From Deltaproteobacteria bacterium (lineage in GTDB: Bacteria; Myxococcota_A; Polyangia; GCA-2747355): 56,254 nt of DNA. The translations under genes were made by a program, and so were the position numbers. The stretch covers positions 1 to 56,254 of the forward strand of contig JAFCZD010000002.1 in the NCBI GenBank assembly GCA_019314525.1, written 5' to 3'. The notes under the pieces were generated by a model. It was not told the DNA's origin, did no database searches, and saw only the letters and a list, made by a program, of their open reading frames with translations. Below, piece by piece: positions 1,851 through 33,715 of this stretch. How positions within the stretch are numbered: position 1 is the stretch's first letter; each line of letters begins with the position of its first letter.

Positions 1851-1980
1851 CTAGACCATAGCGTTTCACGGCCCCCTCGGGAAAGAATCTGTGAGGGCGG
1901 GTTTCTGACCGGTTCCTTGCCTTCCTCTGCCGTGTTCTTTCGTTTCTTGTGGTTCACGACTTACGCCGCGAACATTTAGT
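1851..1980 (-). repeat. Interspersed repeat family R2, copy 1 (near full length), oriented toward cls
   Basis: The reverse complement aligns with 7811-7943 at about 87% identity over about 83 nt (cgtaagtcgYgaacca.aagaaacgaaaga...caaggaaccggtcagaa.cccgccctcacag.ttct). It ends in tctag. Confidence 0.8.
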
Positions 1981-2044
1981 ACACTTGCCAGCACCCAAGC
2001 CAGCCATTAGCCTTGGCTGCACCTTTGGGAGTATGAGAGGAACC

Positions 2045-3067
2045 ATGACGACGATGCGACCGATTTTCGCCACATCAGCGGCGCTAATCCTGCTGGGCTC
2101 CATACCGGCTCACGCCAACAAGCTCGAACCCCTCACCACAAAAGAGCGTGAGATCCTCTACAGCAGCGTTGAAGACACATTGGACAAGAAGCCCTGTGTG
2201 GGGCTGAAGAAGCGCGTGATGCTCCACTGCCGCGACGTGCGCCACTATGTACGCATGAACGAGTGGTACCATGAGGTGTGGCATCCCTATGTCGACAAGA
2301 TTGGTGGTGGCTATATCGGTGTAGCGTCCGACCAGAACCTGACACTCATCGCCTGGGCTCGGTCTGAGGTGGCCTGGCTGATGGACTACGACCCCGTAGT
2401 AGTAAAGGTCAATCGCATTCATAAGGCGCTCATCAAGGCCGCCCCTGACGTGGCGAGTTATCTCGCCCTTTGGGACCGCAAGGGGCGCAAGGCCGCGGCG
2501 GAGGCGATCCGCAAGGAGTACCCAACGGACGCAACGCTCAAGCAAACCTTGAAAATCTATCGTGTCTACCGTGGGGAGATCTACGGCGCCATCAAGCAGG
2601 CGATGCGCCAAGGTAAGCGCAAGCGCTCCTACTGGTTACATCGCGCCGAGGACTACGCTTACATTCGGCAGATGCACCAACTCGATCGCATCCGTATCAT
2701 GGGAGGTGATCTGCTCAAGGATAAGAGCCTGATCGGCATCGGCGAGGCTTCACGCAAGCTTGGTATTCCAGTGCGTGCGATTTACACTTCCAACGCCGAG
2801 GAGTTCTGGCCCTATCCAGAGAACTTCAAGCAGAACTTCATTCGTATGCATATGGATGAGAAGTCTGTGGTGCTCAGAACGCGCCACAGCAGCAAATATG
2901 GCCCACGCATTGGAAGCTACGTTTACATCGTGCAGAGCGGTCAGGACATGCAGAGTCAGCTTAAAGATCCTCAGACCAAAGGGCTGTGGGTGATGATGCG
3001 CTATCGTAAGGCTGGGAAGCCAGGATTTTTCACGATTGGCCGGCCTGTGGACCCCACGTCCATGTAA
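2045..3067 (+). CDS. Secreted hypothetical protein
   Basis: Signal peptide MTTMRPIFATSAALILLGSIPAHA. GAGAGG lies 4 nt before ATG 2045. The track's longer N-terminus (GTG 1949) runs through repeat R2. I recognise no family with confidence. Confidence 0.6.
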   Translation: MTTMRPIFATSAALILLGSIPAHANKLEPLTTKEREILYSSVEDTLDKKPCVGLKKRVMLHCRDVRHYVRMNEWYHEVWHPYVDKIGGGYIGVASDQNLTLIAWARSEVAWLMDYDPVVVKVNRIHKALIKAAPDVASYLALWDRKGRKAAAEAIRKEYPTDATLKQTLKIYRVYRGEIYGAIKQAMRQGKRKRSYWLHRAEDYAYIRQMHQLDRIRIMGGDLLKDKSLIGIGEASRKLGIPVRAIYTSNAEEFWPYPENFKQNFIRMHMDEKSVVLRTRHSSKYGPRIGSYVYIVQSGQDMQSQLKDPQTKGLWVMMRYRKAGKPGFFTIGRPVDPTSM

Positions 3068-10998: not shown

Positions 10999-12471
10999 CT
11001 ATGGGCAGCAGGTGGCGCCGCGTAGGCTGAAGGTGCCCTCGTCGCAGCCGGTGGCTGGGACGAGCCCGCGTAGGGTCTGCCCCTCTTGTTGGCAGAGCTC
11101 CTGGCCCCACTGGAGCCAGAAGGGGAGCGCTTGGCACTCTTGAGCGGGCAGCGCAGAGCTGTCGGTTTGCTGGCAGATCTTGGTGTTGGGCTCGCAGCAG
11201 AAGCCAAGGGCAGCACGCCAGGTTAGCGTGGGTTGCATGCAGGGCTCTCGTGGCAAGAGGCCGGCCAGTGAGCGCTGCTCTCTCGCGCAAAGGAGGCTCG
11301 CGCTCTGCTGGAGTTCTTCGAAAGAGAGGCAGGCATCAGGGGCTAGGGCGTCAACTTCGACGCAGGGCTCTGGTGGGGGAGGCGGTGGTGGTTGGACGCT
11401 GGCCAAGGACTCCTGTCGGCAGCGTAGTGTTGGCATACCGCTGGCGGCCTGGAGCAGCTCACAAGATGCGAGCACGTCCAGGCCTACAAGGACTGCTCGA
11501 GAGCCGGAGAACCAGAGGTCACGCAGCTGCGATGGAGCGGGGAAGAGCCCCTCGATGGTGATCGCGGAGGGGACCTGCTGTGAGGAGAGCGTCGGGTCGA
11601 GTTGATAGAGTCCTGTCGCACTGAGGAGGTAGAGCATGGGGGGCTGGTTGGCCGTCGTGTTTAGGGCTAGTGCCTGCCAGTCTTGGTCAGGGAGGGGGAT
11701 TTCTTGCCATTGGTCTGGATTTTGCCACCAAACCAGCTGCTTCTGACCTAGCGCGAGCACGCTGCCATCGGCGAGCCCCACGACATCAACAAAAAGGTCG
11801 TCTCGTGGCCACGCCGTAGAGACCTTCTCAATATTTCCGATCCACAAGCCTGTCCCGGCTGCCACAACTCGGAGCCCATCGCTCCAGACAGCCCCTAGGG
11901 CGGCACCGATTCCATTGATAGAGGGCCAGGCGCTCACGCGCTCGCCTCGTATTTGCCAGCTTGAACTGACCAGCCCTGTTGGGCTGACGTCGCCCACCGT
12001 GACGAAGACCTCTCCAACGCTGGCGACATCATGGAGTGGTCCGCTCTCGCCGATGGAAAGTGGCATGAGCTGCTCTGTGCCAGAGAGCACGATGCCGACA
12101 CCACGATGTTCCCCCACGGCCACCACGCGTCCGTCCACTCCGAGGGCAACTCCCCGGAGGCTGGGGGTGACGTTCGGGTCCAAGGTCAGGGGCTGCCAGG
12201 TGCTGGTATCTCCTGTGGGTTTACACGCCACGACATTTTCGCCTGCAACACACACACGCGCCAGGCTGCCGGTCACCGCGTAGAGGGCAGGATTGCTGGG
12301 AAGGATTGAGCTGCTGTCAGATCTGTCGTTGGGGTTGCTATCGAGGCTGGGGTTCGCTTCGAGGGCTCCTCCATCCGGAGGGGGCAACACAGGCCGCAGC
12401 TGACTGTCAATGCAGCCCATGGGCAGGAGGCAGAGGAGTACGATGAGCGCGAAGAGGAGGGAGGGTCTCAC
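10999..12471 (-). CDS. Lipoprotein with beta-propeller-like repeats, a poly-Pro linker and a duplicated Cys-rich C-terminal module
   Basis: Lipobox LLPMGC. Recurrent hydrophobic-Gly strand motifs about every 45 aa (VVAVGE, VTVGD, VVAAGTG, VLALGQ). PPPPPPPEP linker. Two similar about 45-aa modules end in CCEP and CCP. GTG start. Lies 60 nt downstream of the cytochrome operon on the same strand. Confidence 0.6.
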   Translation of the reverse strand: MRPSLLFALIVLLCLLPMGCIDSQLRPVLPPPDGGALEANPSLDSNPNDRSDSSSILPSNPALYAVTGSLARVCVAGENVVACKPTGDTSTWQPLTLDPNVTPSLRGVALGVDGRVVAVGEHRGVGIVLSGTEQLMPLSIGESGPLHDVASVGEVFVTVGDVSPTGLVSSSWQIRGERVSAWPSINGIGAALGAVWSDGLRVVAAGTGLWIGNIEKVSTAWPRDDLFVDVVGLADGSVLALGQKQLVWWQNPDQWQEIPLPDQDWQALALNTTANQPPMLYLLSATGLYQLDPTLSSQQVPSAITIEGLFPAPSQLRDLWFSGSRAVLVGLDVLASCELLQAASGMPTLRCRQESLASVQPPPPPPPEPCVEVDALAPDACLSFEELQQSASLLCAREQRSLAGLLPREPCMQPTLTWRAALGFCCEPNTKICQQTDSSALPAQECQALPFWLQWGQELCQQEGQTLRGLVPATGCDEGTFSLRGATCCP

Positions 12472-12531
12472 AACCCTATTGTGTGCCGAGGAAGAGGCGG
12501 CGTCTAGGCGGCGATGCCTGAGGTGGTAGAG

Positions 12532-15500
12532 CTACTTCTCTTCTTCCTCCTCATAAAGCCCTTCTTCGTATTGGTCAGGCAGCTTTGGCTTCTCACCTGC
12601 GGGCATACTCGTGGGTTTCGCCGTCTTTGTTTTGTCCTTATCCTTGGCGTCAGCCTTGGTGTACGCGCCAGGCAGCGGGAGGTGACGCCCTCTGCCGCCC
12701 ACACGTGCTGGGTCACCCTTATAACCAAGGGCGGCGAAGTCGATCCACTTCTTCTCCGAGCGACCATGACATTGGCGACAAGGTCCCTTCTCGGTGGGGT
12801 GGAAGTCGGCCTTTGGCCCGTGGCAGCGCTTACAGGCTACTTCTTGTTCTTGGTGACAATCGGCACAGCGCAGCGCCTTCTTCGCGGGCACGACACCATG
12901 GTTCACTGCCCAATGCATGCGGGTGGACGTGAAGCCGACTTTGCCCGAGAAGGGGCGCTTGGCGGCTTTCATACCGTCGGTGATGGCGCGTTTCCAATCA
13001 AGGTGGCTCCAAAATCCCTCGAAGAGCTTGGGAATGGCAAACTCACGGCTCTCAGCGTCAATGGGCACTACGGCGCGATAGAGCTTGAAGGGCATAATTC
13101 GTGCTGTGGGATCCTCGAGGCTGCCCACAGGAGCGTTGAGGATGGTGTCACCCTCAGCGGTGGCCTTCTGGTTCACGAGGTGTCGTGTGATCTCACCGTT
13201 ATACCAGCGGTAGATCGGGCGCACGTTCTTACCCCACACAAACGTCCCCTTCTTCTTGGAGAAGGTAGGCATGCCAAACTCGTCCTTCTTCACGGGCAGA
13301 TCAGTGCCCGCCTTGGACCAGTCCCACGCCATCTTGGTGGGCGACTCACGCGCGAAAAGCGGTACGTGGCAGCTCTGACACGAGAGCGCGTCGAGGTGTT
13401 TGTCCAAGTGTACGCCCAGCAGCTTGCTCCGTTGGTGGGGGCGCTTGGAGTGGCAATCGGTGCAATGCACGCGCCCTTCGGCGGTGGGGATCGCGGTGGA
13501 TTGCCCGCTGATGCGATGGCGATGGGTCTTGTGGCAGTCCTGACAGAGCATCTTGGCGCGCCCCATGTGAACGTCGAAGTTGTCCTTGGGGTTGGCCAGG
13601 GCTGGCTCGAGGTCACCGTGTTTCACGTTGGCGGCCCCGCCACCATAGAAGTGGCAGCTGCCACAGGCTTTGCGCGTGGGGTGTCCAACATTGGCTGCGA
13701 CCTTGGCCAGGTCCACGGACGCCTCAGGGAAGCCGCCGTTCGCCGCGGCTTTGCGATAGGTGCCGGTGGTGTCATGACAGACGAGGCAGTCGATGTTCTT
13801 TGCGTCTTTGAAGTCGAAGGTGTCGTCTTTCCATCCGTAGCCTGCGTGACATTGTGAGCAGCGCTGTTCGTTGGATGTGATGTGGAGACAGAAGCCATTG
13901 CTGATGGTCGACTTGCCCAGATCGACCCTGTGGGCAGACCCGGCGGCGTCGGGGGAGGGGCCACGCCAGGTCCAATGGGCGGTGCGTAGCATGTCTTGGC
14001 CCTGTTGTTCATGACACTCCAGACATCGTGCCGTTACCGCGCGGGCGTCAGGCTTGCCCTCCAGCTTGACCAAGTCTTTGTGGTTGGGCACGCGACGTTT
14101 GTGGCAGGCCCCCGAGCAGGCCACGGGGGCGTTGGCGTCACGCGTACTACGGTGGCATTTGATGCACTGCTGATGGTAGGCGCCTTTGAGCCCAGGGCGC
14201 AGGGGATGGTCAGGTTCTGTGGGGCGTTGGTGGCAGGCCACACAAGATGAGGGTCGGAAGCTGGCGAGCTTGGAGCGATCGATAGCAACACCAACACGGT
14301 CCGTCTTTTGGCCTGGCTTCTGCGCCCGGTGGTGACATTGGGAGCAATCGCCACCCACGTGTAGGGAGTGTTCTCGGTGAGAGAATCGAACGGGGAGGAA
14401 GTCGTCAGTGCGCTCGTTCACCACCGGATGGGAGAGCGTCAACACTGAGGGCATTACCTCAGACGAAAAGGAGAGCGGCCCTTTCATTGGCGGCTTCGCG
14501 ATGGCCTTGGTCGACGCCTTGAAGCTCAGCGCCTTGAACGAGGTTTGCGTCTTTTCCACCGCGTCGCGATGCACATAGGAGTAGATGTCGATGAAGGCCA
14601 AGAGCACGAGCACGGCGACGGCGCGCATCACCCAGCCACCAAGGCGGGTACGCTGTTGCACTTGGATGTTGATTTCGCGCTCCACAGGATCGTCTTCGTC
14701 ACCGCCAGCGAGCACGGGGAAGTAGTGGGAGAAGAAGCGATAGAGGAAGATGATGGTGGCGATGAGGGCCGCGGTGACAGCGATTTCGCCAATGGCTGGA
14801 AAATATCCGCCCGTGCCATGAGCAGGGTGGTAGCCGGTGATAAAGACATTGATGCGGTTCATCACCAAGCCGACGATGATCATCGAGACAGTGATGAAGA
14901 GCCAACGTGGAGATTGGCGTACCGAGCGTTGCAGGAGCAGCACGAAGGGGATGATGACTCCAATGCCGATCTCGAAGAGGAAGGCGATGGTGTCTCGGGC
15001 GTTGAGGGTGAAGACCGAGAGGTCATTGCGATAGAAGAAGTCACCAAACTTCACGAGGGCGTAGAGGCCCAGTGTGTAGGGGATGAAGCGTGAGAGGGGG
15101 GTGAGGAGCTCCATCTCAGGGGGCTTTTTGTAGGCCTTAGAGGCGAAGATCGACTCGAAGATCACCATGGGAAAACCGATCATGATCGCCGAGAGCAAAA
15201 AGAGCAGCGGCATGATGGGTGTCCACCACAGCGGGCTGACTTTGGATGGCGCGATGAGCATCAGCGTGCCCAAAGAGGATTGGTGCATGAAGGAGAGCAT
15301 CACACCAGCGATGATGAAGATGGGCAGGATGCGGTGGACCCAGATCCGTAGCACACGCAGGACCTTTTGGAAGCGCATCAGGGGCCGCGTCCACCAATAG
15401 CCGTCGTCTATATGTTTCATCAGCCCGGCGAGGAGGGTCGGGGCAAACTCTACGGTGAGCACGGTGAGGTAGAACATCACGCACATGCCGACCTCGAAGA

Positions 15501-15894
15501 GCACGGAGTTGCCTTGCCAGTAGATCGCGGGATGCCAGATGTTGTAGTAGCGGCCGAGGTCGAAGAGCAGACCGGCGCCGACGAAGGAATAACCAAGCCA
15601 CGCGGTGAGCAGCGCAGGCCGTTCGAGGGCGTGGAAGCGCTTGGCACCAAAGATATTGATCAGCGCCGCGGTGGTGAACCCGCCGGCCGCGAGGGCGACG
15701 CCGCAGGCGACATCGATGCCAATCCATATACCCCAGGGGTATGCGTCGTTGAGGTTGGTGACAGCTCCGAGGCCGTTGATCATTCGTACCAGACCAAAGC
15801 CGTAGCCCACCACCATCACCGTGATCAGCAATAGTGTTCCAGTGGAGAGAAAGGGGACGCGCCCGTGTTGGGCAGCAGCGTCGTGGTTACTCAT
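12532..15894 (-). CDS. NrfD/HybB-type polytopic membrane (quinone-interacting) domain fused to a large periplasmic multihaem cytochrome c (c3-like tetrahaem, octahaem tetrathionate-reductase-family-like module, then 2 more haems)
   Basis: The N-terminal about 450 aa is highly hydrophobic and resembles NrfD/PsrC/HybB (YPWGIWIGIDVACGVALAAGGF..., SVLFEVGMCVMFYLTVLTVEF). The C-terminal about 650 aa has 13 CxxCH and 1 CxxxCH. The stretch HWTWRGP...NGFC...CSQCHAGYGWKD..FDF...DCLVCHD.TGTY...CGSCHFYGGGAANVKHGDLE...DVHMG..MLCQDCH resembles the OTR octahaem family. Start set to ATG 15894, which gives an ATGAGTAA overlap with the upstream stop. Confidence 0.8.
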   Translation of the reverse strand: MSNHDAAAQHGRVPFLSTGTLLLITVMVVGYGFGLVRMINGLGAVTNLNDAYPWGIWIGIDVACGVALAAGGFTTAALINIFGAKRFHALERPALLTAWLGYSFVGAGLLFDLGRYYNIWHPAIYWQGNSVLFEVGMCVMFYLTVLTVEFAPTLLAGLMKHIDDGYWWTRPLMRFQKVLRVLRIWVHRILPIFIIAGVMLSFMHQSSLGTLMLIAPSKVSPLWWTPIMPLLFLLSAIMIGFPMVIFESIFASKAYKKPPEMELLTPLSRFIPYTLGLYALVKFGDFFYRNDLSVFTLNARDTIAFLFEIGIGVIIPFVLLLQRSVRQSPRWLFITVSMIIVGLVMNRINVFITGYHPAHGTGGYFPAIGEIAVTAALIATIIFLYRFFSHYFPVLAGGDEDDPVEREINIQVQQRTRLGGWVMRAVAVLVLLAFIDIYSYVHRDAVEKTQTSFKALSFKASTKAIAKPPMKGPLSFSSEVMPSVLTLSHPVVNERTDDFLPVRFSHREHSLHVGGDCSQCHHRAQKPGQKTDRVGVAIDRSKLASFRPSSCVACHQRPTEPDHPLRPGLKGAYHQQCIKCHRSTRDANAPVACSGACHKRRVPNHKDLVKLEGKPDARAVTARCLECHEQQGQDMLRTAHWTWRGPSPDAAGSAHRVDLGKSTISNGFCLHITSNEQRCSQCHAGYGWKDDTFDFKDAKNIDCLVCHDTTGTYRKAAANGGFPEASVDLAKVAANVGHPTRKACGSCHFYGGGAANVKHGDLEPALANPKDNFDVHMGRAKMLCQDCHKTHRHRISGQSTAIPTAEGRVHCTDCHSKRPHQRSKLLGVHLDKHLDALSCQSCHVPLFARESPTKMAWDWSKAGTDLPVKKDEFGMPTFSKKKGTFVWGKNVRPIYRWYNGEITRHLVNQKATAEGDTILNAPVGSLEDPTARIMPFKLYRAVVPIDAESREFAIPKLFEGFWSHLDWKRAITDGMKAAKRPFSGKVGFTSTRMHWAVNHGVVPAKKALRCADCHQEQEVACKRCHGPKADFHPTEKGPCRQCHGRSEKKWIDFAALGYKGDPARVGGRGRHLPLPGAYTKADAKDKDKTKTAKPTSMPAGEKPKLPDQYEEGLYEEEEEK

Positions 15895-16852
15895 GGCTGC
15901 CTCCTTCCTCTTCTGCGTGTGGGTCAGCATCACTTGCATTCTTGTTCTTGCGGTTGGTGAACCACATGATGGCAGCTAAGCTGCCGTAGACGGCTACGGG
16001 CGCGGCGCCATAGCGGAAGATACCGTGTTGGATCGCCTCTGTTAAACGGGGGGGGGCTGTCTCCGGCAGCGGGAGGAGCCCAATTTCCTTGGGTGTTCGT
16101 CCCACGAGGTAGAGCCAGGAGGTGCCACCGACTTCTTTGGCACCATAGACCTCGGGATGGTAGCGGTCCGGCTGCTGGGCCACCCGTTTTCTGGCCAGAG
16201 CTAGGAGATCGGAGCGTGGGCCGAAGACGATGGCCTCCATGGGGCAGGCCGCGGCGCAGGCCGGGTCTGGGCCGTGCTCGCTACCGTCCGCACAATAGGT
16301 GCATTTGCGCACGCGTGGGGTGAGCGGATCGTCGTATTCGTAAGACGGGATCTCAAAGGGGCAAGCCACCATGCAGTAACGGCAGCCGATGCAGCGTTGG
16401 GCGTCGTAATCTACGGAGCCCGAAGCGTTCTTTGTGAGCGCTCCGACGATGCAAGCCGAAACACACGCAGGGTCCAGGCAGTGCATACACTGCAACTTGA
16501 CGAAGGTCTCATCGTGGTCTTGTTGCACCTGTGAGGGGGCGCCATGGTGGGCGTTGATCACCGTGAAAGCGTTGATGCTGGGACGTCGGGCGTCACGGAG
16601 CACCTCGCGATCACTAAAGGGCTTTTTGGGTTGGGCCAGCTTGTTGCGCTTGTTGCACGCCTCTTCACATTTGCGGCAGCCAACGCAGAGGGTGGTGTCT
16701 ACCAAACAGCCTACATGGGCGCTGGGCGCATCTTTGTCCTTGGCTGCCGTGGGTGCGGAGGCTGGCGCAGCGTTAGCCTTTGCTGCCCCCGCGGCAGCAC
16801 CCGCCGAGGTGAGCGCTAAGGCTGTCTTGAGGAAATCTCTCCGTGAACTCAT
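15887..16852 (-). CDS. Tat-exported 4Fe-4S ferredoxin-type subunit (HybA/NrfC/PsrB/HmcB-like) with C-terminal membrane anchor
   Basis: Twin-arginine signal MSSRRDFLKTALALTSAGAAAGAAKA. Several Cys clusters (CVGCRKCEEAC, CMHCLDPACVSAC, CIGCRYCMVACP, CTYCAD...CAAACP). C-terminal hydrophobic helix AAPVAVYGSLAAIMWF. Confidence 0.85.
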   Translation of the reverse strand: MSSRRDFLKTALALTSAGAAAGAAKANAAPASAPTAAKDKDAPSAHVGCLVDTTLCVGCRKCEEACNKRNKLAQPKKPFSDREVLRDARRPSINAFTVINAHHGAPSQVQQDHDETFVKLQCMHCLDPACVSACIVGALTKNASGSVDYDAQRCIGCRYCMVACPFEIPSYEYDDPLTPRVRKCTYCADGSEHGPDPACAAACPMEAIVFGPRSDLLALARKRVAQQPDRYHPEVYGAKEVGGTSWLYLVGRTPKEIGLLPLPETAPPRLTEAIQHGIFRYGAAPVAVYGSLAAIMWFTNRKNKNASDADPHAEEEGGSHE

Positions 16853-16970
16853 AGGGTACTTCTCCCATCGCCAGATCCACGTGGGACGGCTGGTAGTCTA
16901 CTAATGCGAGAGGAATAGTGGGCAATGGCGGTAAACGCCGCCCTGAAGGGGTGGAGGAGGGGAACGCCGC

Positions 16971-18086
16971 TTAGCGGCAGCCCATGCCGCCGACGTGACA
17001 ACTGAGGCACATCGGGTTCTTGCGGCACTCGTCGGCTTTGTTGCGCCATTTGAAGCCTGGTGTGTGTGGGTTTCCGCCCGACCCGCCTACCTGGTGGCAG
17101 CGCACGCAATTGGAGGCTGCGCCTTGATCGTGGCAGCTGGCGCAGCGAGATGAGTCCCGTCGCGCGAGCCGCCCGTGAAACCCAGGTTGCCCGGGTTGCA
17201 TCCATTGTCCGCCATGAACCTTGCGCAGGTTGGTGCCCAAGCGGGCTTTGCCCACAGGTGCGCTCACGCCCTGCATCTCGTGGCAAGTCGTGCAGTGTTT
17301 GGCGCCGTGGCATTTGCGGCAGGTATCAGGTCGCGCTCGCGCGTCGCGCGAGTGGCGGCCGAGGTAGTCTCCACGATGGATGTAACGTGCGTTGACGCGC
17401 TCGGGGTAACGAAGAGAGAGGGGCATCGCCGCCGTCTTAGCGTGGCAGTCGCCGCAGAACGTTTGGTCATGACATTGCGCGCAGCGCTGGGTGTTGCGCG
17501 CGAGGGGACCATGGCGCTTGAGGAAGTCCCCCTGGTGGCCAAGGCTGGCCACGGCCTGCAGCGTTTGTCCTCGCAGGTTGGTGTGGCATTTATCACAGGC
17601 TTGGGAGTTCAGGTCGCTCTTGTGGCAGCTGTCGGTGCACACCGCCATCTTGCCCAAGAGCTTGGTGCCGGCTTTCTTGGCGGTGTAGGCGGCTGCATGG
17701 CAATGTTTGCAACCGCCTTTGTCTTTGAGGTGCGGCTCGTGGCTTTTGTGCGAGAAGATCAGCTGGCGGTTAACCCGCGTAAGCTCGATGTTCTTGTCTG
17801 TGCCAACGTGGCACAGCTTGCACTCTTTTTTATCTGTGGTGGCGTCTTCATGGCAGTCGGCGCAGCCCCCGTGGTTCTTTTTGGGGATGAACTTGCCCAG
17901 GGTAGGGCCTGTGCTCTTGGCGATCTCACCATGACAATCACCACAGTCCCCTTGCTCCACGTGAAAGGCGTGCGAGAACTTGAGCACGCTAGAGAGCTGG
18001 AGGCTGTGTTTCACTTTGACAGTGGCGCAAGCGACGATCGCGACGCTGGCGGCGACCATAATCCAGTATCGGCGGCTGAGCTTCAC
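16971..18086 (-). CDS. Multihaem cytochrome c (12 CxxCH and 1 CxxxCH), c3/c7-type repeats, signal peptide or possible lipobox
   Basis: Motifs counted in the translation: CGDCH, CADCH, CKLCH, CKHCH, CTDSCH, CDKCH, CAQCH, CGDCH, CRKCH, CTTCH, CASCH, CVRCH, CLSCH. N-terminus MKLSRRYWIMVAASVAIVAC. The GTG start overlaps the upstream stop (GTGA). Confidence 0.85.
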   Translation of the reverse strand: MKLSRRYWIMVAASVAIVACATVKVKHSLQLSSVLKFSHAFHVEQGDCGDCHGEIAKSTGPTLGKFIPKKNHGGCADCHEDATTDKKECKLCHVGTDKNIELTRVNRQLIFSHKSHEPHLKDKGGCKHCHAAAYTAKKAGTKLLGKMAVCTDSCHKSDLNSQACDKCHTNLRGQTLQAVASLGHQGDFLKRHGPLARNTQRCAQCHDQTFCGDCHAKTAAMPLSLRYPERVNARYIHRGDYLGRHSRDARARPDTCRKCHGAKHCTTCHEMQGVSAPVGKARLGTNLRKVHGGQWMQPGQPGFHGRLARRDSSRCASCHDQGAASNCVRCHQVGGSGGNPHTPGFKWRNKADECRKNPMCLSCHVGGMGCR

Positions 18087-19495
18087 AGCGCACCTCCCGG
18101 GAGATAAGCGAAAGAGGGGCTCGCGCTGCGGCTGACGCGCACAGGGCCTCCCGTCGGGTTGCTATCGATATCCCAGCTCAGGCGCACCATGAAGGTGCCC
18201 ATTTGTGCGAGCAGGGGAGTGACACCTGCTTGGCCACCCGCCATCAACGTCAAGTTGTCGCGGATGGCGTAGCCAAGATACGCTGCACCGGTGAAGGAGA
18301 GGCGTGAGTCATCAGCGATGACATAGCTCGCCACCTCATCACGCGCGTCGAGGTAAAAAAGGTCGACGTCAACGGTGGCAGAGAGCCCTCGGACGAGGCG
18401 TGCGGAGCCACCCACGCGACCACGGATGTAGCCACCGTCTGGGGCGCCCACGCGCTCCACCAATGCTGAGACCCGATAGCGGCGCTCGAGGCCAAAGCGG
18501 GCGTCGGCGCGCAGCAGGCCACGAAGCTCGAGTTGTCCATCGTCACAGCTCTGCCCACCATACTCCTTGAGGTTGCAGGTCTCACCATAGTAGCGACCAC
18601 CAGCCTCGGCTGAGAGAGAGAGCCAACGTTTGGGTGACCAATAGCTCTCCAAGAAGGCTTCCTGGTGCTTGATGTCGGAGAAGATAGAAAAGATTGAGGT
18701 TCGTGGAATGAAAAGGTCCGGCTCGGAAAAGCGGTAGCCAGCCATGAGGGAGAGGTTCCGTCGCAGGTCAAAACGCACACCTCCGCGAGCCTCCTTAAGA
18801 CGCTCAGCGATCATGCTGAAGGTTCCGTCAGAAAAGATCGTCAACTTTGAGTTGGGGTGTACAGCCGCATCCCAGCCCAACTCCTGAAAGGCTGTATGGG
18901 CGTCATAGGCTTTGTGGCGGAAGGAGACCCCAGCGCCAACAAACTCTTTGAAGCGGTAGCCCACACGGCCACCCACGACCCAGTTGCCCCCATATTTGTA
19001 GTCGTTGGCGTTGGTCGGCCAGCTCTGGCGAAGAAAACGAATCCCGGTGGGTACCCCTCCAAAAGCTGTGACGTCGAGGCCAAAGGGCGACCGGTAGTGA
19101 ACGTAACCTCCGTCTAGCTGCTCATAGACCGAGGGGCCAGCAGAGACGAATTGTCGGCCAACTCGCAGCTGCAAACCGCGAAACATGCCCTTTTCATGGG
19201 CGCGATAGGAGAGCAGAAAGACGTTCACGTCGCCGTTGGCGCGCTGCTCATCGAGGGGGACGTCGTTGAGGTGTACCTGTCCCCAAAGAGAAGCGACGAG
19301 GGAGAGGCCTTGGACGCCAAGGTCATCCGCGCGCAAGCCAATGAGCTCATAAAAGGGGACATGGTGTGAGGTGTCGTTCGCCCCTGGCAAGACATAGCCG
19401 CGCACATGGGTGCTGGTGTTCAGGCGAAAGTTGGTTGCCCAAGCCGTGGAGCTAGTGCTGGCGAAAAGGAGGAGGGTCACCATCAGCGCTCTCAT
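18083..19495 (-). CDS. Predicted outer-membrane beta-barrel (porin-like) protein
   Basis: Cleavable signal MRALMVTLLLFASTSSTAWA. No Cys or haem motifs. Alternating hydrophobic/polar strands with aromatic girdles run throughout (YRFSEPDLF, FLESYWSP, LSLSAEAGGRYY, ATVDVDLFYL, FTGAAYLGYAI, FMVRLSWD). Embedded between two cytochrome genes, with 1-nt and 4-nt start/stop overlaps. Confidence 0.65.
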   Translation of the reverse strand: MRALMVTLLLFASTSSTAWATNFRLNTSTHVRGYVLPGANDTSHHVPFYELIGLRADDLGVQGLSLVASLWGQVHLNDVPLDEQRANGDVNVFLLSYRAHEKGMFRGLQLRVGRQFVSAGPSVYEQLDGGYVHYRSPFGLDVTAFGGVPTGIRFLRQSWPTNANDYKYGGNWVVGGRVGYRFKEFVGAGVSFRHKAYDAHTAFQELGWDAAVHPNSKLTIFSDGTFSMIAERLKEARGGVRFDLRRNLSLMAGYRFSEPDLFIPRTSIFSIFSDIKHQEAFLESYWSPKRWLSLSAEAGGRYYGETCNLKEYGGQSCDDGQLELRGLLRADARFGLERRYRVSALVERVGAPDGGYIRGRVGGSARLVRGLSATVDVDLFYLDARDEVASYVIADDSRLSFTGAAYLGYAIRDNLTLMAGGQAGVTPLLAQMGTFMVRLSWDIDSNPTGGPVRVSRSASPSFAYLPGGAL

Positions 19496-20601
19496 CAGAA
19501 CACCTCCACTTTGCCGTTGATGTGGGTCATGGGATCGAGTTGTCCATCCTTGTAGCCCTTGATGTGGCAGTTCTCACAGATGGGCTCATTGGGATGAGCT
19601 TTGTTCGTGAGGGTCTTCGCCGGAGGGTTGCCGTGGCAGCTACCGCAAACAAGGCCACCCTCGATCTTCGCCGTCCATGTCCAGGTGATGTCTGGGTTGG
19701 CACCATCGAGGGCGTGGCAGTAGACGTTGGAGCAGGTGTGTGTGGCGGCATCATAGCTTGGTAGTAGATCGACATCTGGGGAGAGGGTCTTGCCGCGGGC
19801 CATGTTGCCGAAGGTCAGTTCGGCGCGCAGGTCGCTCTGGCGCTGCTCGTCGTCAAAGAGGTGGCCTGGAGCGTAAAAGGCAGGGCTTGGAAGGGTGTGA
19901 CATTCACGACAGGCCACAGGTTGGCCGAGCGTGGCGTTGAGGTGAATGGCATGGAGGCCAACGCTGGCCGAGGAGAAGCTGCCCATCAGATCCGAGGGGG
20001 GATTGGCAGCTTCCTTATTGCCATCGCCATGACAGGTGCTGCAGCCCGTGGGACCCTCGGTGTGGCAGGTCATGCAGCTCCCGGCGTTGCCGCGGCCCGC
20101 GAAGTCCTCGCCGTGACACACTTGGCATTGACGCATATCCCAGGCGCTGGCTCGCAACCAGCCACCGTGGAAATTATTGGCGCCACGGTCATGGGGCAGC
20201 ATCCATCCAGCTGGGTGAACATGATCGGCGCTCGCGCTGAAATAGGCCATGCGTTCTTCAACGACCCAGCGCGTCAAGAGGTCACCGTCGTTTGTGTCCA
20301 GCAACGACGCATGGGTCTCGTCGCCAAGCACTGCGATCAGCTTGCTTTGGACATCCCCAGGGATCGCGTTAGGCACGTCGTCCGAGCCCCGACGGGCAAC
20401 CCCACGCCAGTTGGAGAGATCGTAGCTCCCTTCCATGGTGGTCGCGCTATGGCAGGTGACACACGTTCGTTCCAGCAATGGAGCGACGTCATCCACATAG
20501 CTCAGGGCGGGAATCCGGATTAGGTCTTGGTCCTTGCTGCGCACCTCGCCACAGCTGATGGCGGTGATGGCTAACAAGAGCCAGGGGAGTCGACGCTTCA
20601 T
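19495..20601 (-). CDS. Lipoprotein multihaem cytochrome c (7 CxxCH and 1 CxxxxCH) with a Geobacter-type CxxxxCH...CxxCH domain
   Basis: Lipobox LLLAITAISC. Motifs CVTCH, CQVCH, CMTCH, CSTCH, CRECH, CSNVYCH, CGSCHGNPP, CENCH. The pair CSNVYCH...W.W...CGSCHGNPP matches the pattern I recall for the Geobacter CxxxxCH/CxxCH domain. GAGAGGGA Shine-Dalgarno lies 6 nt before the ATG. Confidence 0.8.
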   Translation of the reverse strand: MKRRLPWLLLAITAISCGEVRSKDQDLIRIPALSYVDDVAPLLERTCVTCHSATTMEGSYDLSNWRGVARRGSDDVPNAIPGDVQSKLIAVLGDETHASLLDTNDGDLLTRWVVEERMAYFSASADHVHPAGWMLPHDRGANNFHGGWLRASAWDMRQCQVCHGEDFAGRGNAGSCMTCHTEGPTGCSTCHGDGNKEAANPPSDLMGSFSSASVGLHAIHLNATLGQPVACRECHTLPSPAFYAPGHLFDDEQRQSDLRAELTFGNMARGKTLSPDVDLLPSYDAATHTCSNVYCHALDGANPDITWTWTAKIEGGLVCGSCHGNPPAKTLTNKAHPNEPICENCHIKGYKDGQLDPMTHINGKVEVF

Positions 20602-20826
20602 GACGCATCCCTCTCAAAGTTTACACGAAGGGCAGCAACCCTAAGCAGCGGCACTTTACACTATTGGCAAGGAGGCCGTACCAAGAACTTTGCGCCAAAG
20701 TTGTCTTTTATGGCGGGTTTGCGTCCTCGATTTCACCTTTTTTAATTCCAGGAAAACCATAGATGACGCGGTGCGTAGTCGCGAGCCGATACCTCAAGCG
20801 AGGTGTTTGGGCGGACAAAGTGTCAA

Positions 20827-20906
20827 GAGGATCAGTCGACGAGGATCAGTCGACGAGGATCAGTCGACGAGGATCAGTCGACGAGGATCAGTCGAGGATC
20901 AGGATC
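20827..20906. repeat. 14-bp tandem repeat gaggatcagtcgac, 4 perfect copies plus 2-3 truncated copies
   Basis: Perfect units at 20827, 20841, 20855 and 20869, then gaggatcagtc, gaggatcag and gatc. Each unit contains GATC and the palindrome GTCGAC. It overlaps the last 6 codons and the stop of the zinc-ribbon gene. It lies about 225-300 nt upstream of the cytochrome operon ATG. Confidence 0.95.
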
Positions 20907-21526
20907 TCTTCCACATCGAGATCATCAGCAATGACGACCTTGGGTGGCGTGGAGGTGGGGCGCTGAGGTCCGGTCAGCTCTTGTGGAGCCATGCTTCTCT
21001 GCGTACCACCTTTTTCGTTCTCTAGGGCGATGCGGGTCGCCTCTTCTCGCATGGCTTCGTCATGTCCATGCTTGTCCATAATTTCCACGACGAGATCAGA
21101 GGCATCGAGGTAATCCGAGGCAGCCTGTTCAGTCTGCATTCCTTCCGCTCGACGCTCATCCGCGCGCCGGTCCGAGGGAAAGAGGCGGTTGTCCCTGCGT
21201 CCTATTCGTCGCTCTTGCCAGCGGCGGTCGCGTGAGAGGACCTCACGGATCGCCTCGATGGTGTGTGGGATCGGTTGCATGCGGAACGTCCGGGTGGCGC
21301 AGTTGTGACACATGGGCAGCCATTTGCGCTGGAATTCTACCGAACGCAGGTTCTCATGCCGCCGCTCGCCGCAGACCACACACGCCGCCCCCAGGCCTAC
21401 CGGTCGCGCTTCAGTCCAACGGAGGTAACAGATCTGGCAGCGTCCACGTCGTAACGCGGATACGCGGGTGCCACAAGCTTCGCAGGTGAGCAACATCTCT
21501 TTGGGAAGGGTAGGGCTGGCGGACAT
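20888..21526 (-). CDS. Hypothetical Cys-rich (zinc-ribbon-like) protein with acidic C-terminus
   Basis: CEACG...CQIC...CVVCG...CHNC paired cysteines. ATG 21526 follows GAGGAG. The track's longer N-terminus lacks any support. Confidence 0.55.
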   Translation of the reverse strand: MSASPTLPKEMLLTCEACGTRVSALRRGRCQICYLRWTEARPVGLGAACVVCGERRHENLRSVEFQRKWLPMCHNCATRTFRMQPIPHTIEAIREVLSRDRRWQERRIGRRDNRLFPSDRRADERRAEGMQTEQAASDYLDASDLVVEIMDKHGHDEAMREEATRIALENEKGGTQRSMAPQELTGPQRPTSTPPKVVIADDLDVEEILILD

Positions 21527-21727: not shown

Positions 21728-22414
21728 ATGAGCATTTCGGTGTTGGAACGATTTGCAGTGTTGTTGGCGGTGGTAGCAATATTATTCGGTAGCACATGTC
21801 CTGTGACCATGGGTGAGCCCGTGGAATCCACCGAGATCGGCGCAGAGGTTCTGGATGTTGGTGGCGTCCAAGGCGCCAGCTGGAAGGTCAGCGCCGATCG
21901 CACCCTTACTGTTCGCCTTCACGCTGATGGTGAGGAGGCCTCGGCCACCGTTGAAGCCGAATCGGGCTATGTGACGCTCTTGGGACGCACCATCGCCATC
22001 GCTGATTTCTGCTGGCGAACGGACACGATTTGTCCCCATCAGGTCCTCCTCGACGCCACCATCACGAAGCAGCCTTTCGGCGACGGACGGACGTTGGTTA
22101 GCTTCAACCGGCGGGGACCTCTGGCTGAACTCTTCGATCGTGAAGCTCTTGAGGGGCACCTCGTGGGCAATGATCTTGCCGTGCCTCTCGCTGTGGGAGG
22201 TGCTGGGCAGGGCACGTGTGGTTTGCTTGCTTCGTCAGGGGTGCTTGCCACGGCTCGCGCGACCATGGCGGGAGAAGGCACCATGGCTGACAGCCTCGAG
22301 GGCCGGGTCACTGTGGCCTTCACAGGCCTCTGCTTTAGCTTGGGTGGCCAAGGTGATCTACTGCCCGGAGATACCCTAATGATTAGCGCGGCTTTCGTGG
22401 CCGATCGGCTTTAG
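21728..22414 (+). CDS. Secreted hypothetical protein
   Basis: GGGAGG Shine-Dalgarno. N-terminal hydrophobic signal FAVLLAVVAILFGSTC. Followed by a strong terminator. No family recognised. Confidence 0.55.
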   Translation: MSISVLERFAVLLAVVAILFGSTCPVTMGEPVESTEIGAEVLDVGGVQGASWKVSADRTLTVRLHADGEEASATVEAESGYVTLLGRTIAIADFCWRTDTICPHQVLLDATITKQPFGDGRTLVSFNRRGPLAELFDREALEGHLVGNDLAVPLAVGGAGQGTCGLLASSGVLATARATMAGEGTMADSLEGRVTVAFTGLCFSLGGQGDLLPGDTLMISAAFVADRL

Positions 22415-22459: not shown

Positions 22460-22460
22460 G

Positions 22461-22533
22461 TGATCCCGGAAGGAATCGAACCTTCAACAAATGGATTAAG
22501 AATCCACTGCTCTGCCTATTGAGCTACGGGACC
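22461..22533 (-). tRNA. tRNA-Lys (anticodon CUU)
   Basis: The reverse complement GGTCCCGTAGCTCAATAGGCAGAGCAGTGGATTCTTAATCCATTTGTTGAAGGTTCGATTCCTTCCGGGATCA folds as a cloverleaf. Acceptor GGTCCCG/CGGGATC, D stem GCTC/GAGC, anticodon loop TTCTTAA, T arm GAAGG-TTCGATT-CCTTC. CCA is not encoded. Confidence 0.95.
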
Positions 22534-31100: not shown

Positions 31101-32390
31101 TCAGGGCGCGAGAACCACCAGGCGGATGACGTGGTTGTTGACGTCAGAGACGTAGAGGCGCGTGCCAGCTTCATTGACGACCGCCGAGAAGGGGGCGAAG
31201 AACTGGGCAGTCTTGGCGTCACCATCTTTGTAGCCTGGGATGCCAGAGCCGGCGATGGTCGTCACGTGGTTGTCCTCGCGCCTGCGTAGGCGGTGGTTGG
31301 CCGAGTCGACGATATAGACGCGGCCGGCGCCATCGACGGCGACGGAGCTAGGCACACGAAAGAGCGCGACGTTGTAGTAGCCATCGAGGAAGCCGGGTTT
31401 GCCGCTGATACCCGCGATGCTCGCGATGCTATTGCCCGACGCCCGCAGGATGCGGTGGTTCTGACTCTCAGCGACAAAAACTTGCCCGGCGGCGTCCACA
31501 GCCACGCCGGTGGTGCCAACGAAGTTGTAGTATCCATCGGCACTGAGGTTCGTCACCTGCGAGTTGGCGGTGATCTTGCGCACCCGGTTGTTGAACGTAT
31601 CGGCGACGTAGAGCACGCCAAAGCCGTCCACCGTGATGTCGCGCGGAGAGTTGAATGTCGCCTTCACGCCCCAATCGTTGGTGCCGCCTGCCGAGCCAGA
31701 CCCGGCGAAGGTCGTGACGGTTCCGCTGCGTAGGCGGCGGATGCGATGGTTCCCCGTGTCCGCGATGTAGACGGTGCCTTTGCTGTCGATGGTTACACCG
31801 CTCGGCGCGAAGAAGCGCGCCTCGTTGAGGGCAGCGCCGTCAAAGAACCCTGGGTTGCCTGTGCCTGCGATGGTGGTGAGTTCACCGCCCTCTAGCTTAC
31901 GAATACGGTGGTTTTCCCGGTCGGCGATGTAGAGCACGCCATCTTTTAGCGCGAGACCGGAGGGCGAGTTCAGCTGGGCGGCGAGGGCAGGGCCGTCGGC
32001 GAACCCTGGCTCGCCGTTGCCCACCAAGGTGATTACACAGTTGACACAGCCGGGCCCCTGGTCGGGATCGCCAGTCGCATCCGTGGCGTCTGTGGCGATA
32101 TCTATCGACAGGTCGGCGACTGCTGCATCAAGGGGAGCATCGGCCCCCTGATCTACAGGCGGCCATGGCGGTAGGTCGCGGGGCGGAAAGGGCCCATCAG
32201 GGGGGCTCACACAAAGATTCGAAAGGCACCAGAGCCCAGGATCGCAGGTGCCATTGGGATAGCAGCCCTCCCCCTCACCACCGAAAGTCGTCACGGCCAG
32301 ATCATCGCTGGAGCAAGCGGGGAGTAGGATCGCGAGGCTGCAGAATAGCAGGAAGCGTGCTTTCGAGCGATGCATCGCGTTCTCCTTCAT
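31101..32390 (-). CDS. NHL-repeat beta-propeller lipoprotein
   Basis: Lipobox ILLPAC. Cys-rich knot CYPNGTCDPGLWCLSNLC. Repeated (Y/F)(I/V)AD..NHRIR motifs occur 6 times. ATGA overlap with the upstream paralogue. Confidence 0.8.
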   Translation of the reverse strand: MKENAMHRSKARFLLFCSLAILLPACSSDDLAVTTFGGEGEGCYPNGTCDPGLWCLSNLCVSPPDGPFPPRDLPPWPPVDQGADAPLDAAVADLSIDIATDATDATGDPDQGPGCVNCVITLVGNGEPGFADGPALAAQLNSPSGLALKDGVLYIADRENHRIRKLEGGELTTIAGTGNPGFFDGAALNEARFFAPSGVTIDSKGTVYIADTGNHRIRRLRSGTVTTFAGSGSAGGTNDWGVKATFNSPRDITVDGFGVLYVADTFNNRVRKITANSQVTNLSADGYYNFVGTTGVAVDAAGQVFVAESQNHRILRASGNSIASIAGISGKPGFLDGYYNVALFRVPSSVAVDGAGRVYIVDSANHRLRRREDNHVTTIAGSGIPGYKDGDAKTAQFFAPFSAVVNEAGTRLYVSDVNNHVIRLVVLAP

Positions 32391-33664
32391 GGGGCGATCT
32401 CCCGGATGATGTGGTTACCGGTGTCGGCTACGAAGACATGCCCCCCGTCGGTGACGGTGATGGCAACGGGCCCGCGGAAGCGTGCGTCGTTGAGGGGGCC
32501 GTCGGCGTAGCCTGCGCTCGCGCCGACGAAGGTCTGGACCAGGTCGTTTTTCAGCACCCTGATGCGATGATTTCCCGTATCCGCGATGTAGAGGCTGCCG
32601 GAGAAGGGTTCGTAGGCCAAGCTCTGAGGAGTGCTGAATTGTGCAAGGTGCGCCTCTCCATCGAAGAGACCTGGCGTGTTGGCTTTGCCAGCCATGTGAT
32701 CCACGAGGGTGCCCACCATACGGACGAGATAGTGACCCCCGGTGACAGCCGCCAAGATCGCCCCCGAGGGGTCGTTGGTCACGCCGGCTGGGCGCGACAG
32801 GTTAGTTCCCACCGTGAAGACCTGGCCACCACTGATGCGGCGCAGTTGGTTGTTGTCTCGATCAGCGACCCAGACGTCGCCAAAGACATCTACTGCGACA
32901 TCCACCGGATTGTTGAACGTCGCCTGCCCCTGGTAACCGTCCTTGCTGCCGACGGCGCCAGTGCCCGCAAAGGTGGTTACAGTCTGATCAGAAGAGATGC
33001 GCCGAATGCTGTGGTTCGCTCGATCGGCGACGAAGAGGCACTGTGTGCGTGGATCGTAGGCGAGGCCACAGGGATCGGAAAAGAGCGCCAGGGAGGCCAC
33101 GCCATCCATGCGACCGCTGACGCTTCCCGCGTAGGTGCTGACAACACCTTTTTCGATGCGTCGAATGCGGTGGTTAGCGCTGTCAGCGACGAAGACCACG
33201 CCGGCTGGCGTGACCGCCACCCCACGAGGGCTCGAAAATTGGGCTTGGTTTGCGGGGCCATCCTGGTTGCCGGGGCTGCCCACGAGGCCTGCCACGGTGC
33301 GCACGAGGCCTTGAAAGGCCAGATCCTGCCGAGCGAGATCCGAGTCGCCCAGATCTGAGTCACCCAGATCCTTCAGCAGGAGCGACTCTCCCATACCATC
33401 ACCAACGCTCGCCATATCTCCATCGGTGTGGCGCATGTCCCCAGGAGGGATCGCCCCATCGAATGGCGCTTGGTCGACGAAGCTGCCGTCGCCATCTCCA
33501 CGGCACCAGCCCTCTGTGCAAAGCAGGCTCTGGTTGCAGGTTTGGTTGGGATAGCAGGGCTGGTCTGCGCTACCCATCCTGATCTCTGTGCTGCCGCTAG
33601 AGCGCGCGCATCCCGCTGCTCCTCCGAGTAGGAGAAATACCAACAAATGCCATCCCATAACCAC
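32387..33664 (-). CDS. NHL-repeat beta-propeller lipoprotein (tandem paralogue)
   Basis: Signal/lipobox LLLGGAAGC. CYPNQTCNQSLLCTEGWC. Six AD..NH.IR repeats. Confidence 0.8.
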   Translation of the reverse strand: MVMGWHLLVFLLLGGAAGCARSSGSTEIRMGSADQPCYPNQTCNQSLLCTEGWCRGDGDGSFVDQAPFDGAIPPGDMRHTDGDMASVGDGMGESLLLKDLGDSDLGDSDLARQDLAFQGLVRTVAGLVGSPGNQDGPANQAQFSSPRGVAVTPAGVVFVADSANHRIRRIEKGVVSTYAGSVSGRMDGVASLALFSDPCGLAYDPRTQCLFVADRANHSIRRISSDQTVTTFAGTGAVGSKDGYQGQATFNNPVDVAVDVFGDVWVADRDNNQLRRISGGQVFTVGTNLSRPAGVTNDPSGAILAAVTGGHYLVRMVGTLVDHMAGKANTPGLFDGEAHLAQFSTPQSLAYEPFSGSLYIADTGNHRIRVLKNDLVQTFVGASAGYADGPLNDARFRGPVAITVTDGGHVFVADTGNHIIREIAP

Positions 33665-33715
33665 TAAGTTAACACCTACGTTTATCGCAAGGCAATCATT
33701 AGGGGGGGCTGGGAG

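Follow-up and report, generated by a model that had tools for sequence, protein, structure and literature searches.

Can a single compact gene block link the inner membrane's quinone pool to the cell surface, and which way would electrons pass through it? The question is raised by five genes, here called A to E, on the minus strand of a 56,254-nucleotide (nt) stretch of contig JAFCZD010000002.1 (assembly GCA_019314525.1), which derives from a Deltaproteobacteria bacterium placed in the Polyangia and is referred to below as the window. We consider it moderately probable that A to E form a conduit between the quinone pool and the cell surface, with the electrons most likely moving outward. The block would comprise two modules, a porin-cytochrome (Pcc)-like triad of A, B, and C spanning the outer membrane and an Hmc/Nhc/Nrf-like pair of D and E in the inner membrane.

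Gene A (19495-20601) encodes a lipoprotein multihaem cytochrome of 368 amino acids (aa), a candidate cell-surface component, and B (18083-19495) a haem-free outer-membrane beta-barrel of 470 aa with 22 predicted strands and an ordinary Sec signal peptide. C (16971-18086) is a haem-dense lipoprotein cytochrome of 371 aa with 13 haem motifs, a candidate for a wire inserted into the barrel, D (15887-16852) is a Tat-exported, HybA/HmcB-like protein of 321 aa with four [4Fe-4S]-type cysteine motifs, and E (12532-15894) joins an NrfD membrane domain to a cytochrome part with 14 haem motifs over 1120 aa. The genes overlap at the A/B junction (TGATG, 1 nt), the B/C junction (GTGA), and the D/E junction (ATGAGTAA), with gaps of 118 nt between C and D and of 60 nt between E and the following gene, F. 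Because of the D/E overlap, the start of E was placed at the ATG at 15894 rather than at the start of the longer open reading frame (ORF) at 15939; the resulting length equals that of the two closest homologues, and the N-terminus agrees with those of the orthologues, including the one from locus L001. The 35 haem motifs are distributed over A (8, being seven CxxCH and one CxxxxCH), C (13, being 12 CxxCH and one CxxxCH), and E (14, being 13 CxxCH and one CxxxCH), with none in B. The original prediction of five packed minus-strand genes, with these junctions and this motif total, was confirmed by a recount of the ORFs and motifs. In a terminator and promoter scan of the block, signal counts were at chance level, also in the C-D spacer, and give no information on operon structure; the sole match of an Rfam scan of 10-23 kb was a tRNA. 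For comparison, 38 related loci (L-numbers) were fetched, all of them from metagenome-assembled genomes (MAGs) or metagenome contigs, and 36 B-bearing loci were compared; the contig of the closest relative, whose B is 83% identical, is known from its gene table alone.

Does B form a barrel in the outer membrane? Two AlphaFold2 runs, which ignore haems, yield all-beta models with 22 long strands each (model 1: pLDDT 77.3, pTM 0.69; model 2, from a different alignment: pLDDT 84.7, pTM 0.80), where the strand count and the loop sides were read from the secondary-structure output. The prediction of a barrel with a signal peptide and zero haem motifs is thereby borne out, and the strand count compares with the 18-22 strands of Pcc porins (PMC4245776). 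In a Foldseek search of the PDB, the listed top 50 matches are all outer-membrane barrels, with the best TM-scores of about 0.5 to barrels of 22-24 strands, among them the FimD and PapC ushers and the PfeA receptor. B has no match in Pfam (E<=0.01) or NCBIfam, and its family profile finds nothing among the PDB sequences at E<=10. An exhaustive profile search places 1,236 representative proteins in the B family, 371 of them at E<=1e-30, and every name found for the members checked, by cluster look-ups and a homologue search with a broader alignment, is "hypothetical protein". Homology of B to MtrB was considered and rejected, as there is no match to PF11854, no PDB sequence match at E<=10, among sequences that presumably include the solved structure of MtrB, and no MtrB among the top 50 structural matches. 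The most conserved motif of the family, P..F.PR.SIF.VFS, lies at residues 259-271 of B (window 18683-18721), in a long loop between strands 13 and 14 that contains two short helices in the model and would be extracellular by standard barrel topology; judged from the model, a cytochrome might make contact with B at this loop.

The two cytochromes that flank B both appear to be lipoproteins. A matches TIGR01904, the CxxxxCH/CxxCH family, with 49.9 bits (cut-off 27), which agrees with the predicted Geobacter-style CxxxxCH/CxxCH pair among its 8 haem motifs, and also matches Cytochrome_C7; its lipobox cysteine (AISC/GE) is kept in the orthologues. The description of C as a 13-motif cytochrome of the c3/c7 type holds as well, by motif count and by a Cytochrome_C7 match of 53.8 bits, and there is a marginal match to the MtrC/MtrF domain II/IV family (31.4 bits, cut-off 30). 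A had been taken as the only lipoprotein cytochrome, which is right with respect to its own conserved lipobox but overlooks C, where a lipobox (VAC/AT) is conserved among the orthologues too. C has about 27 residues per haem versus 33 in MtrA, and a low ratio is regarded as typical of haem wires (PMC5566968). Among relatives, the A-type cytochromes come with 8 haems or, in a long form with a five-haem insertion, with 13.

The triad is widely conserved. A scan of species-representative genomes with B returned 28 loci, nearly all from Myxococcota MAGs (Kofleriaceae, Haliangium, Polyangiaceae, and "Myxococcales"), in keeping with the Myxococcota-type genome that was originally surmised. A C-type gene directly follows B, usually overlapping it, in 34 of the 36 B-bearing loci, the other two ending at a contig edge, and each complete copy of C has 13 motifs. 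An A-type cytochrome is found in most of these loci, and the A/B and B/C overlaps are shared by the window and its closest relatives L001, L003, L004, and L036-L038. In these loci, genes of the octahaem tetrathionate reductase (OTR) type and genes for sugar or polymer export are never next to B. This supports a conserved core of a lipoprotein cytochrome, a 22-strand barrel, and a 13-haem lipoprotein cytochrome that acts as a porin-cytochrome unit.

The same data bear on the idea that B could be a plain pore for diffusion or export, with A and C periplasmic or merely membrane-anchored and zero passage of electrons over the outer membrane. Between B and MtrB no sequence similarity is detectable, AlgE, ushers, and Occ porins come out as the best structural matches of B, and the lipoboxes of A and C could just anchor these proteins at the periplasmic side. 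However, the overlapping coupling of B and C persists in 34 of 36 loci whatever the other neighbours are, sugar or polymer export genes do not adjoin B, and 22 strands exceed the need for solute diffusion, so that we regard a simple pore as very unlikely.

How closely does the porin-cytochrome unit follow known ones? The working definition of a Pcc cluster is a porin of 18-22 strands, an adjacent cytochrome with 5-14 haems, and usually an outer-membrane cytochrome (PMC4245776). The triad fits this loose definition by strand count, haem count, and gene adjacency: B has 22 predicted strands, and C, with 13 motifs, adjoins it in 34 of 36 loci. A, whose lipobox is conserved and which contains a TIGR01904 domain, is a candidate for the outer-membrane cytochrome. 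A close counterpart by size and haem count is the "Group IV" Pcc of Anaeromyxobacter, a member of the same phylum, in which a porin is paired with a cytochrome of 338-344 aa and 12-14 haems (PMC4245776), although those clusters are without an outer cytochrome and B matches no curated model. The tight gene cluster recalls OmbB-OmaB-OmcB, and A resembles OmcB-type cytochromes in being a lipoprotein with a CxxxxCH unit; the order in the window (lipoprotein cytochrome, barrel, 13-haem cytochrome) and the lipobox of C, which is not a soluble periplasmic protein, differ from Pcc clusters. MtrCAB and MtoAB/PioAB share the logic of a haem wire inside a barrel, combined with a lipoprotein cytochrome at the surface, and some mto operons also encode an inner-membrane quinone-active cytochrome (CymA or MtoC). 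Unlike in MtrCAB, the barrel has 22 strands versus the 26 (28 predicted) of MtrB and lacks PF11854, the candidate wire has 13 haems versus 10 with no match to DmsE/MtrA, and the inner partner is an NrfD-FeS pair versus NapC/NirT. In TIGR03508, the decahaem MtrA/DmsE family, C has no match and A reaches 16.1 bits versus a cut-off of 192.2. The original assignment of A, B, and C as components of the Pcc and MtrCAB type thus stands for the Pcc definition, whereas the tests for MtrB and MtrA came out negative. Large multihaem cytochromes with Big_2 (Ig-like) domains adjoin the triads of L003 (11796-14636, 946 aa) and L004 (4130-6535, 801 aa), and these are candidates for extracellular extensions of the conduit.

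What would connect the triad to the quinone pool? D was predicted to be a Tat-signal 4Fe-4S protein with a C-terminal anchor, and it has a Tat motif (SRRDFLK), four [4Fe-4S]-type cysteine cluster motifs, and an alignment with HybA that spans the C-terminal anchor region; its matches are HmcB (311.9 bits), HybA (261.4 bits), and Fer4_11 (62.3 bits). The N-terminal part of E (14710-15894) is an NrfD domain of the HybB/HmcC type with the quinone site, matching PF03916 with 63.6 bits (gathering score 25.8), the HybB model NF008133 with 323.9 bits, and HmcC with 265.1 bits, and the NCBIfam scores for NrfC (93 bits) and NrfD (24 bits) are far below the Hyb and Hmc scores of D and E. Membership of D and E in Hyd-2 or Hmc complexes was rejected, since the scores stay below the cut-offs for HybB (323.9 versus 450), HmcC (265.1 versus 550), HmcB (311.9 versus 420), and HybA (261.4 versus 263); no hydrogenase or HmcA/D/E/F genes flank the block. 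A hydropathy scan finds an extra transmembrane helix after the NrfD domain (14584-14640), which would put the cytochrome part of E in the periplasm, because HybB-type subunits have 10 transmembrane helices (PMC8076601) and the attachment of c-type haems needs the periplasm.

The cytochrome part of E is more than a plain wire. It begins with a tetrahaem c3-type domain (14080-14427; Cytochrom_CIII and Cytochrome_C7) akin to the C-terminal domains found in HmcA and in nine-haem cytochromes (PDB IDs 1Z1N, 1H29, and 19HC; E 3.5e-12 to 2e-05). This is followed by an OTR domain (12841-14049) with 497.1 bits against TIGR04315 (cut-off 375) and 184.5 bits against PF11783. Residues 620-1047 align with the Shewanella oneidensis OTR (PDB ID 1SP3) at an E value of 1e-119, with the eight CxxCH motifs in register, and Lys676 and Cys684 (numbering of the 1135-aa ORF) align with the lysine and the cysteine located ahead of the second CxxCH in 1SP3. 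We take the lysine of 1SP3 at this position to be the true OTR ligand, Lys56; its counterpart in E is encoded at 13912-13914, and the haem-2 motif CSQCH at 13846-13860. The active-site haem of OTR is ligated by a lysine from outside the CxxCH motif (PMC12285233), and E apparently holds an intact OTR enzyme domain with this catalytic lysine kept. The similarity extends over the whole fold, the eight CxxCH motifs, and the distal lysine with its neighbouring cysteine, whereas the S. oneidensis enzyme is soluble and periplasmic and the domain of E is tethered to the membrane, with four haems before it and two after it. These two extra C-terminal motifs, CKRCH and CRQCH (12766-12834), emerged from an alignment of 14 E-family proteins, in which the last one, CRQCH, is present in all 4 E proteins linked to a triad and in none of the 10 stand-alone ones. 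Among stand-alone fusions, P0050, P0080, and P0106 (Acidobacteriia and Binatia being among the sources) have a leucine in the column of the catalytic lysine, which may mark subgroups with a different active-site ligation or a shift in the alignment.

Matches in Pfam and NCBIfam therefore bear out the functional assignments of A, C, D, and E, with two amendments. E is indeed NrfD/HybB-like with 14 haem motifs, but its cytochrome part consists of a c3 domain and a true OTR domain; and D-E is indeed an FeS and NrfD quinone module, but calling it "quinol-oxidising" was an assumption, as its closest named homologues reduce quinone.

Full-length proteins with the NrfD-c3-OTR fusion number at least 120; they have about 1,050-1,120 aa, come from Acidobacteriota, Binatia, Krumholzibacteriia, and others, and are labelled in the databases either "Ni/Fe-hydrogenase cytochrome b subunit", probably wrongly, or "tetrathionate reductase family octaheme cytochrome". 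D and E occur by themselves in a 5.98-Mb genome (L006) and on an Acidobacteriia contig, with no porin or extra cytochromes nearby. D-E is a self-sufficient and widespread two-gene module built like NrfABCD, MccACD, and NhcABCD (PMC8076601). It shares with these complexes, and with HmcABC and HybAB, an NrfD-like quinone subunit, a subunit with four [4Fe-4S] clusters, and a multihaem cytochrome; it differs in that the cytochrome is fused to NrfD via an extra helix, consists of c3 and OTR domains, and leaves all equivalog cut-offs unreached. Neither an OTR complex nor an NrfD-c3-OTR fusion is included in a review of NrfD complexes (Calisto and Pereira 2021, PMC8076601). An ArsR/HTH_5 gene precedes D both in L038 (6504-6839, between C and D) and in the stand-alone locus L006 (6658-7002), and this regulator is probably the D-E module's own sensor.

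Are the two modules inherited together? Three other lineages, L001/L002, L036, and L038, have the complete A-B-C-D-E order, with identities to the window of 60-63% for C, 62-64% for D, and 68-73% for the NrfD part of E, and these similar values are consistent with a joint inheritance of the five genes. In L001, a deletion has removed the catalytic lysine, the adjacent cysteine, the haem-2 motif, and most of the PF11783 region from E (13638-16391, 917 aa, 13 haems); this E keeps the NrfD domain, the c3 domain, and the remaining haems, and the five-gene cluster is otherwise intact. The retention of the cluster with an E lacking the catalytic lysine and haem 2 points to electron relay, and not OTR catalysis, as the conserved role there. 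Together, the L001 deletion and the restriction of CRQCH to triad-linked proteins suggest that E acts as a relay where it is linked to a triad.

The conduit that we favour would work as follows. The NrfD-type domain of E would oxidise quinol, and the electrons would be relayed by the four FeS clusters of D into the periplasmic 14-haem chain of E, formed by the c3 domain, the eight OTR haems, and the two extra C-terminal haems. C, lipid-anchored and probably filling B from the periplasmic side, would take the electrons from E and serve as the haem wire, and A, probably the surface-exposed terminal cytochrome with its 8 haems, would hand them to acceptors outside the cell, for instance Fe(III)/Mn(IV) oxides or humics. 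The genes A-C and D-E would probably be co-transcribed in this lineage, with the two modules joined via the haems of E and C, and the OTR active site might act as a side outlet to a soluble periplasmic acceptor.

Several points weigh against this conduit. The gene table of the closest relative lists n224, U, A, B, C, and an F-like gene (U and F being flanking genes described below), followed by the same PPDK_N/response-regulator gene as in the window; D-E is absent between these shared flanks. L037, whose B is 57% identical, is without D-E as well and has a convergent gene for a CbcL-like protein after C instead, and in L038 the ArsR gene sits in the C-D gap. Because of these three loci, the link between the triad and D-E is optional and dispensable, and the proposed synteny is upheld by the five-gene order in three more lineages but not as an obligate unit. 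The seam itself, the C-D spacer (16853-16970, minus strand, 118 nt), is poorly conserved with no common element over the three loci compared (window, L001, and L036), and its length, together with the regulator found there in L038, makes separate transcription possible. The correlation of the extra haem with triad linkage comes from four sequences of one clade and may reflect shared ancestry alone. The OTR domain of the window looks catalytically intact in its sequence and may simply be an enzyme. C has a lipobox, unlike the soluble MtrA and OmaB, and its insertion into the barrel is an assumption. By analogy, HybAB and HmcBC, the nearest named homologues of D-E, would argue for electrons running from a periplasmic donor to quinone (PMC8076601). 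Finally, the whole case is built from MAG and metagenome sequences.

Could the triad and D-E then be two independent neighbours? D-E would in this case be a quinol:substrate reductase for tetrathionate, nitrite, or hydroxylamine, and A-B-C a conduit served by other inner-membrane partners. Such independence would fit the stand-alone D-E pairs in the 5.98-Mb genome and on the Acidobacteriia contig, the at least 120 full-length fusions, the catalytic lysine and haem 2 kept in the E of the window, the triad without D-E in the closest relative, and the ArsR-type regulator, which goes with D-E in L006 and parts it from C in L038; moreover, the addition of tetrathionate raised OTR transcripts in Acidobacteriota (bioRxiv 10.1101/2020.10.01.322446). 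It fits less well with the order of C followed by D-E, held in four diverged lineages with matching divergence, with the retention of D-E in L001 despite its lost catalytic haem, and with the C-terminal haem gained in the triad-linked clade. We therefore judge independence rather unlikely and keep to the conduit joined by E and C.

The neighbours of other triads also bear on the inner-membrane partner. In L004, the triad lies near a separate module of a cytochrome, an FeS protein, and an NrfD protein, and genes for CbcL-like proteins, in which multihaem c is combined with Ni_hydr_CYTB, lie near the triads of L036 (13761-16046, minus strand, 761 aa) and L037 (12888-14918, minus strand, 676 aa). 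The recurring pairing is that of the triad with some inner-membrane quinone-active cytochrome module.

Would electrons run outward or inward through the conduit? The same hardware could work in the opposite direction, or reversibly, with donors outside the cell, which might be Fe(II) minerals, a partner cell, reduced humics, or a cathode, feeding C and E and, from there, quinone or the OTR site. The best NCBIfam matches of D and E are to quinone-reducing complexes (HmcB 312, HybA 261, HybB 324, and HmcC 265 bits, those to NrfC/NrfD being far lower), the c3 domain of E is like the C-terminal domains of HmcA and nine-haem cytochromes, and Hyb, Hmc, and Nhc, with Qrc further off, pass electrons from periplasmic donors to quinone (PMC8076601). 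Porin-cytochrome clusters with inner-membrane partners have, in addition, been proposed to serve uptake in Fe(II) oxidisers (PMC5566968). On the other hand, the OTR site is of the lysine-ligated reductase type, a stand-alone D-E module must take electrons from quinol to use it, and the entry of electrons at the level of Fe(II) into the quinone pool is energetically unfavourable. The alternative partners of the triad are, furthermore, CbcL-like, and CbcL of Geobacter serves as a quinol oxidase in outward electron transfer, as the Cbc complexes and ImcH are inner-membrane quinol oxidases for extracellular electron transfer. E would resemble these as a proposed quinone-active multi-c-haem protein feeding an outer-membrane conduit, unlike CbcL in having NrfD plus FeS in place of a HydC/FdnI-type dihaem b domain (PF01292). 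Uptake is thus improbable in our judgement, if still to be taken seriously, and outward transfer remains our preferred direction.

A further version of the conduit would have it wired to an active, membrane-tethered OTR, forming a three-way junction of mineral, enzyme, and quinone in which electrons from minerals, humics, or partner cells outside would reduce a periplasmic N or S oxyanion. The reverse could also occur, with an oxidation at the OTR site coupled to extracellular Fe(III)/Mn(IV), and the NrfD/FeS part could be a switchable branch to the quinone pool. We think such a junction quite unlikely; if it were true, it would be a mineral/enzyme/quinone branch point that uses a never-characterised barrel family.

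Is the combination of both halves new? The original prediction called it undescribed, which does not hold in general, because mtoABCD, PCC3, PCC4, and pcc clusters with cytochrome b-multihaem genes have been published (PMC4245776, PMC5566968). The PCC3 and PCC4 clusters (He et al. 2017, PMC5566968) likewise unite a porin, multihaem cytochromes, and an inner-membrane redox protein on the idea of a conduit through the entire envelope, and in PCC4 subgroup II a pfam13247 Fe-S gene lies upstream of the membrane-protein gene. Unlike in the window, the membrane protein is a putative dihaem-b protein with five helices, the cytochromes have 21-63 haems, there is no OTR, and the hosts are mostly Proteobacteria. 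No description of an NrfD-OTR fusion or of a Myxococcota porin-cytochrome of this type was found in the literature searched, the coverage of which was incomplete. Within that literature, the apparent novelties are the unannotated barrel family and the pair of lipoprotein cytochromes that goes with it, a class of complexes defined by the NrfD-c3-OTR fusion, and the combination of the triad with D-E, together with natural variants in which either the catalytic haem or D-E as a whole has been lost.

Among Myxococcota, extracellular electron transfer is known mainly from Anaeromyxobacter, and here a conserved triad is found in a whole clade of Polyangia-type, mostly uncultured myxobacteria, whose MAG names suggest sources such as groundwater, soil, and mine water. 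This barrel family may escape marker surveys that rely on models of Mtr, OmbB, or Cyc2, and D-E, as an unstudied fusion, would extend the catalogue of NrfD complexes by a new class. The series of variants, from the intact OTR of the window to L001 without the catalytic haem, the closest relative without D-E, and L037 with a CbcL-like partner, offers a ready comparison for how a soluble-substrate reductase turns into an electron relay.

Does the unit extend beyond A and E? Three further elements on the same strand had been proposed as possible members. The Cys-rich zinc-ribbon ORF U (20888-21526, minus strand) is a conserved neighbour of the triad, with homologues in L001, L037, and L038 (E 1e-69 to 1e-74) in varying orientation; it has no match in Pfam, NCBIfam, or the PDB, and its role is possibly regulatory. 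A perfect tandem array of a 14-bp unit in 4.9 copies (20827-20895) lies upstream of A, beginning in the last codons of U and overlapping its stop codon. None of 100 shuffles reaches 5 matches. As not one of the 38 related loci has the array, it probably arose recently by slippage and is no conserved part. F (10999-12471, minus strand) is a Cys-rich lipoprotein with a lipobox and 18 cysteines, without a match in Pfam, NCBIfam, or the PDB, so that its proposed beta-propeller character found no backing there, and without a homologue in the 38 fetched loci. The gene table of the closest relative has an F-like gene (502 aa) directly after C, the only relative to show F, and membership of F in the unit is doubtful. 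All three elements are thus present and U is a conserved neighbour, but the array is found in no relative, F only in the nearest one, and the orientation of U varies.

A tRNA-Lys(CTT) gene lies just upstream of the triad in the window (22460-22533, minus strand) and in L001 (7834-7908), L037 (8561-8633), and L038 (1530-1604), and a 228-aa secreted ORF (n228; 21728-22414, plus strand) adjoins U and the tRNA. In a comparison of these four loci, U, the 228-aa ORF, and the tRNA are not oriented to one another in a constant way, and rearrangements seem to be frequent upstream of A; an inverted-repeat scan around the U/n228 segment gave only weak arms of 12-14 nt for a possible invertible switch. 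A genomic island at the tRNA-Lys was considered and dropped, because the tRNA and one flank (Rsm22 and, by Pfam, also PASTA and RadC) are common to L001, which indicates a stable chromosomal position.

Further away, a DUF7790 protein is encoded in the window (1949-3067, plus strand) and again close to the triad in L004 (12593-13663, minus strand), possibly by coincidence. The window also contains a second cytochrome gene (35125-36111, minus strand) with 7 CxxCH motifs, which overlaps a Mur-ligase-like gene (33716-35128) and is then followed by genes for two NHL-repeat proteins (32387-33664 and 31101-32390, minus strand), and the segment from 31101 to 36111 may represent another periplasmic or extracellular redox unit.

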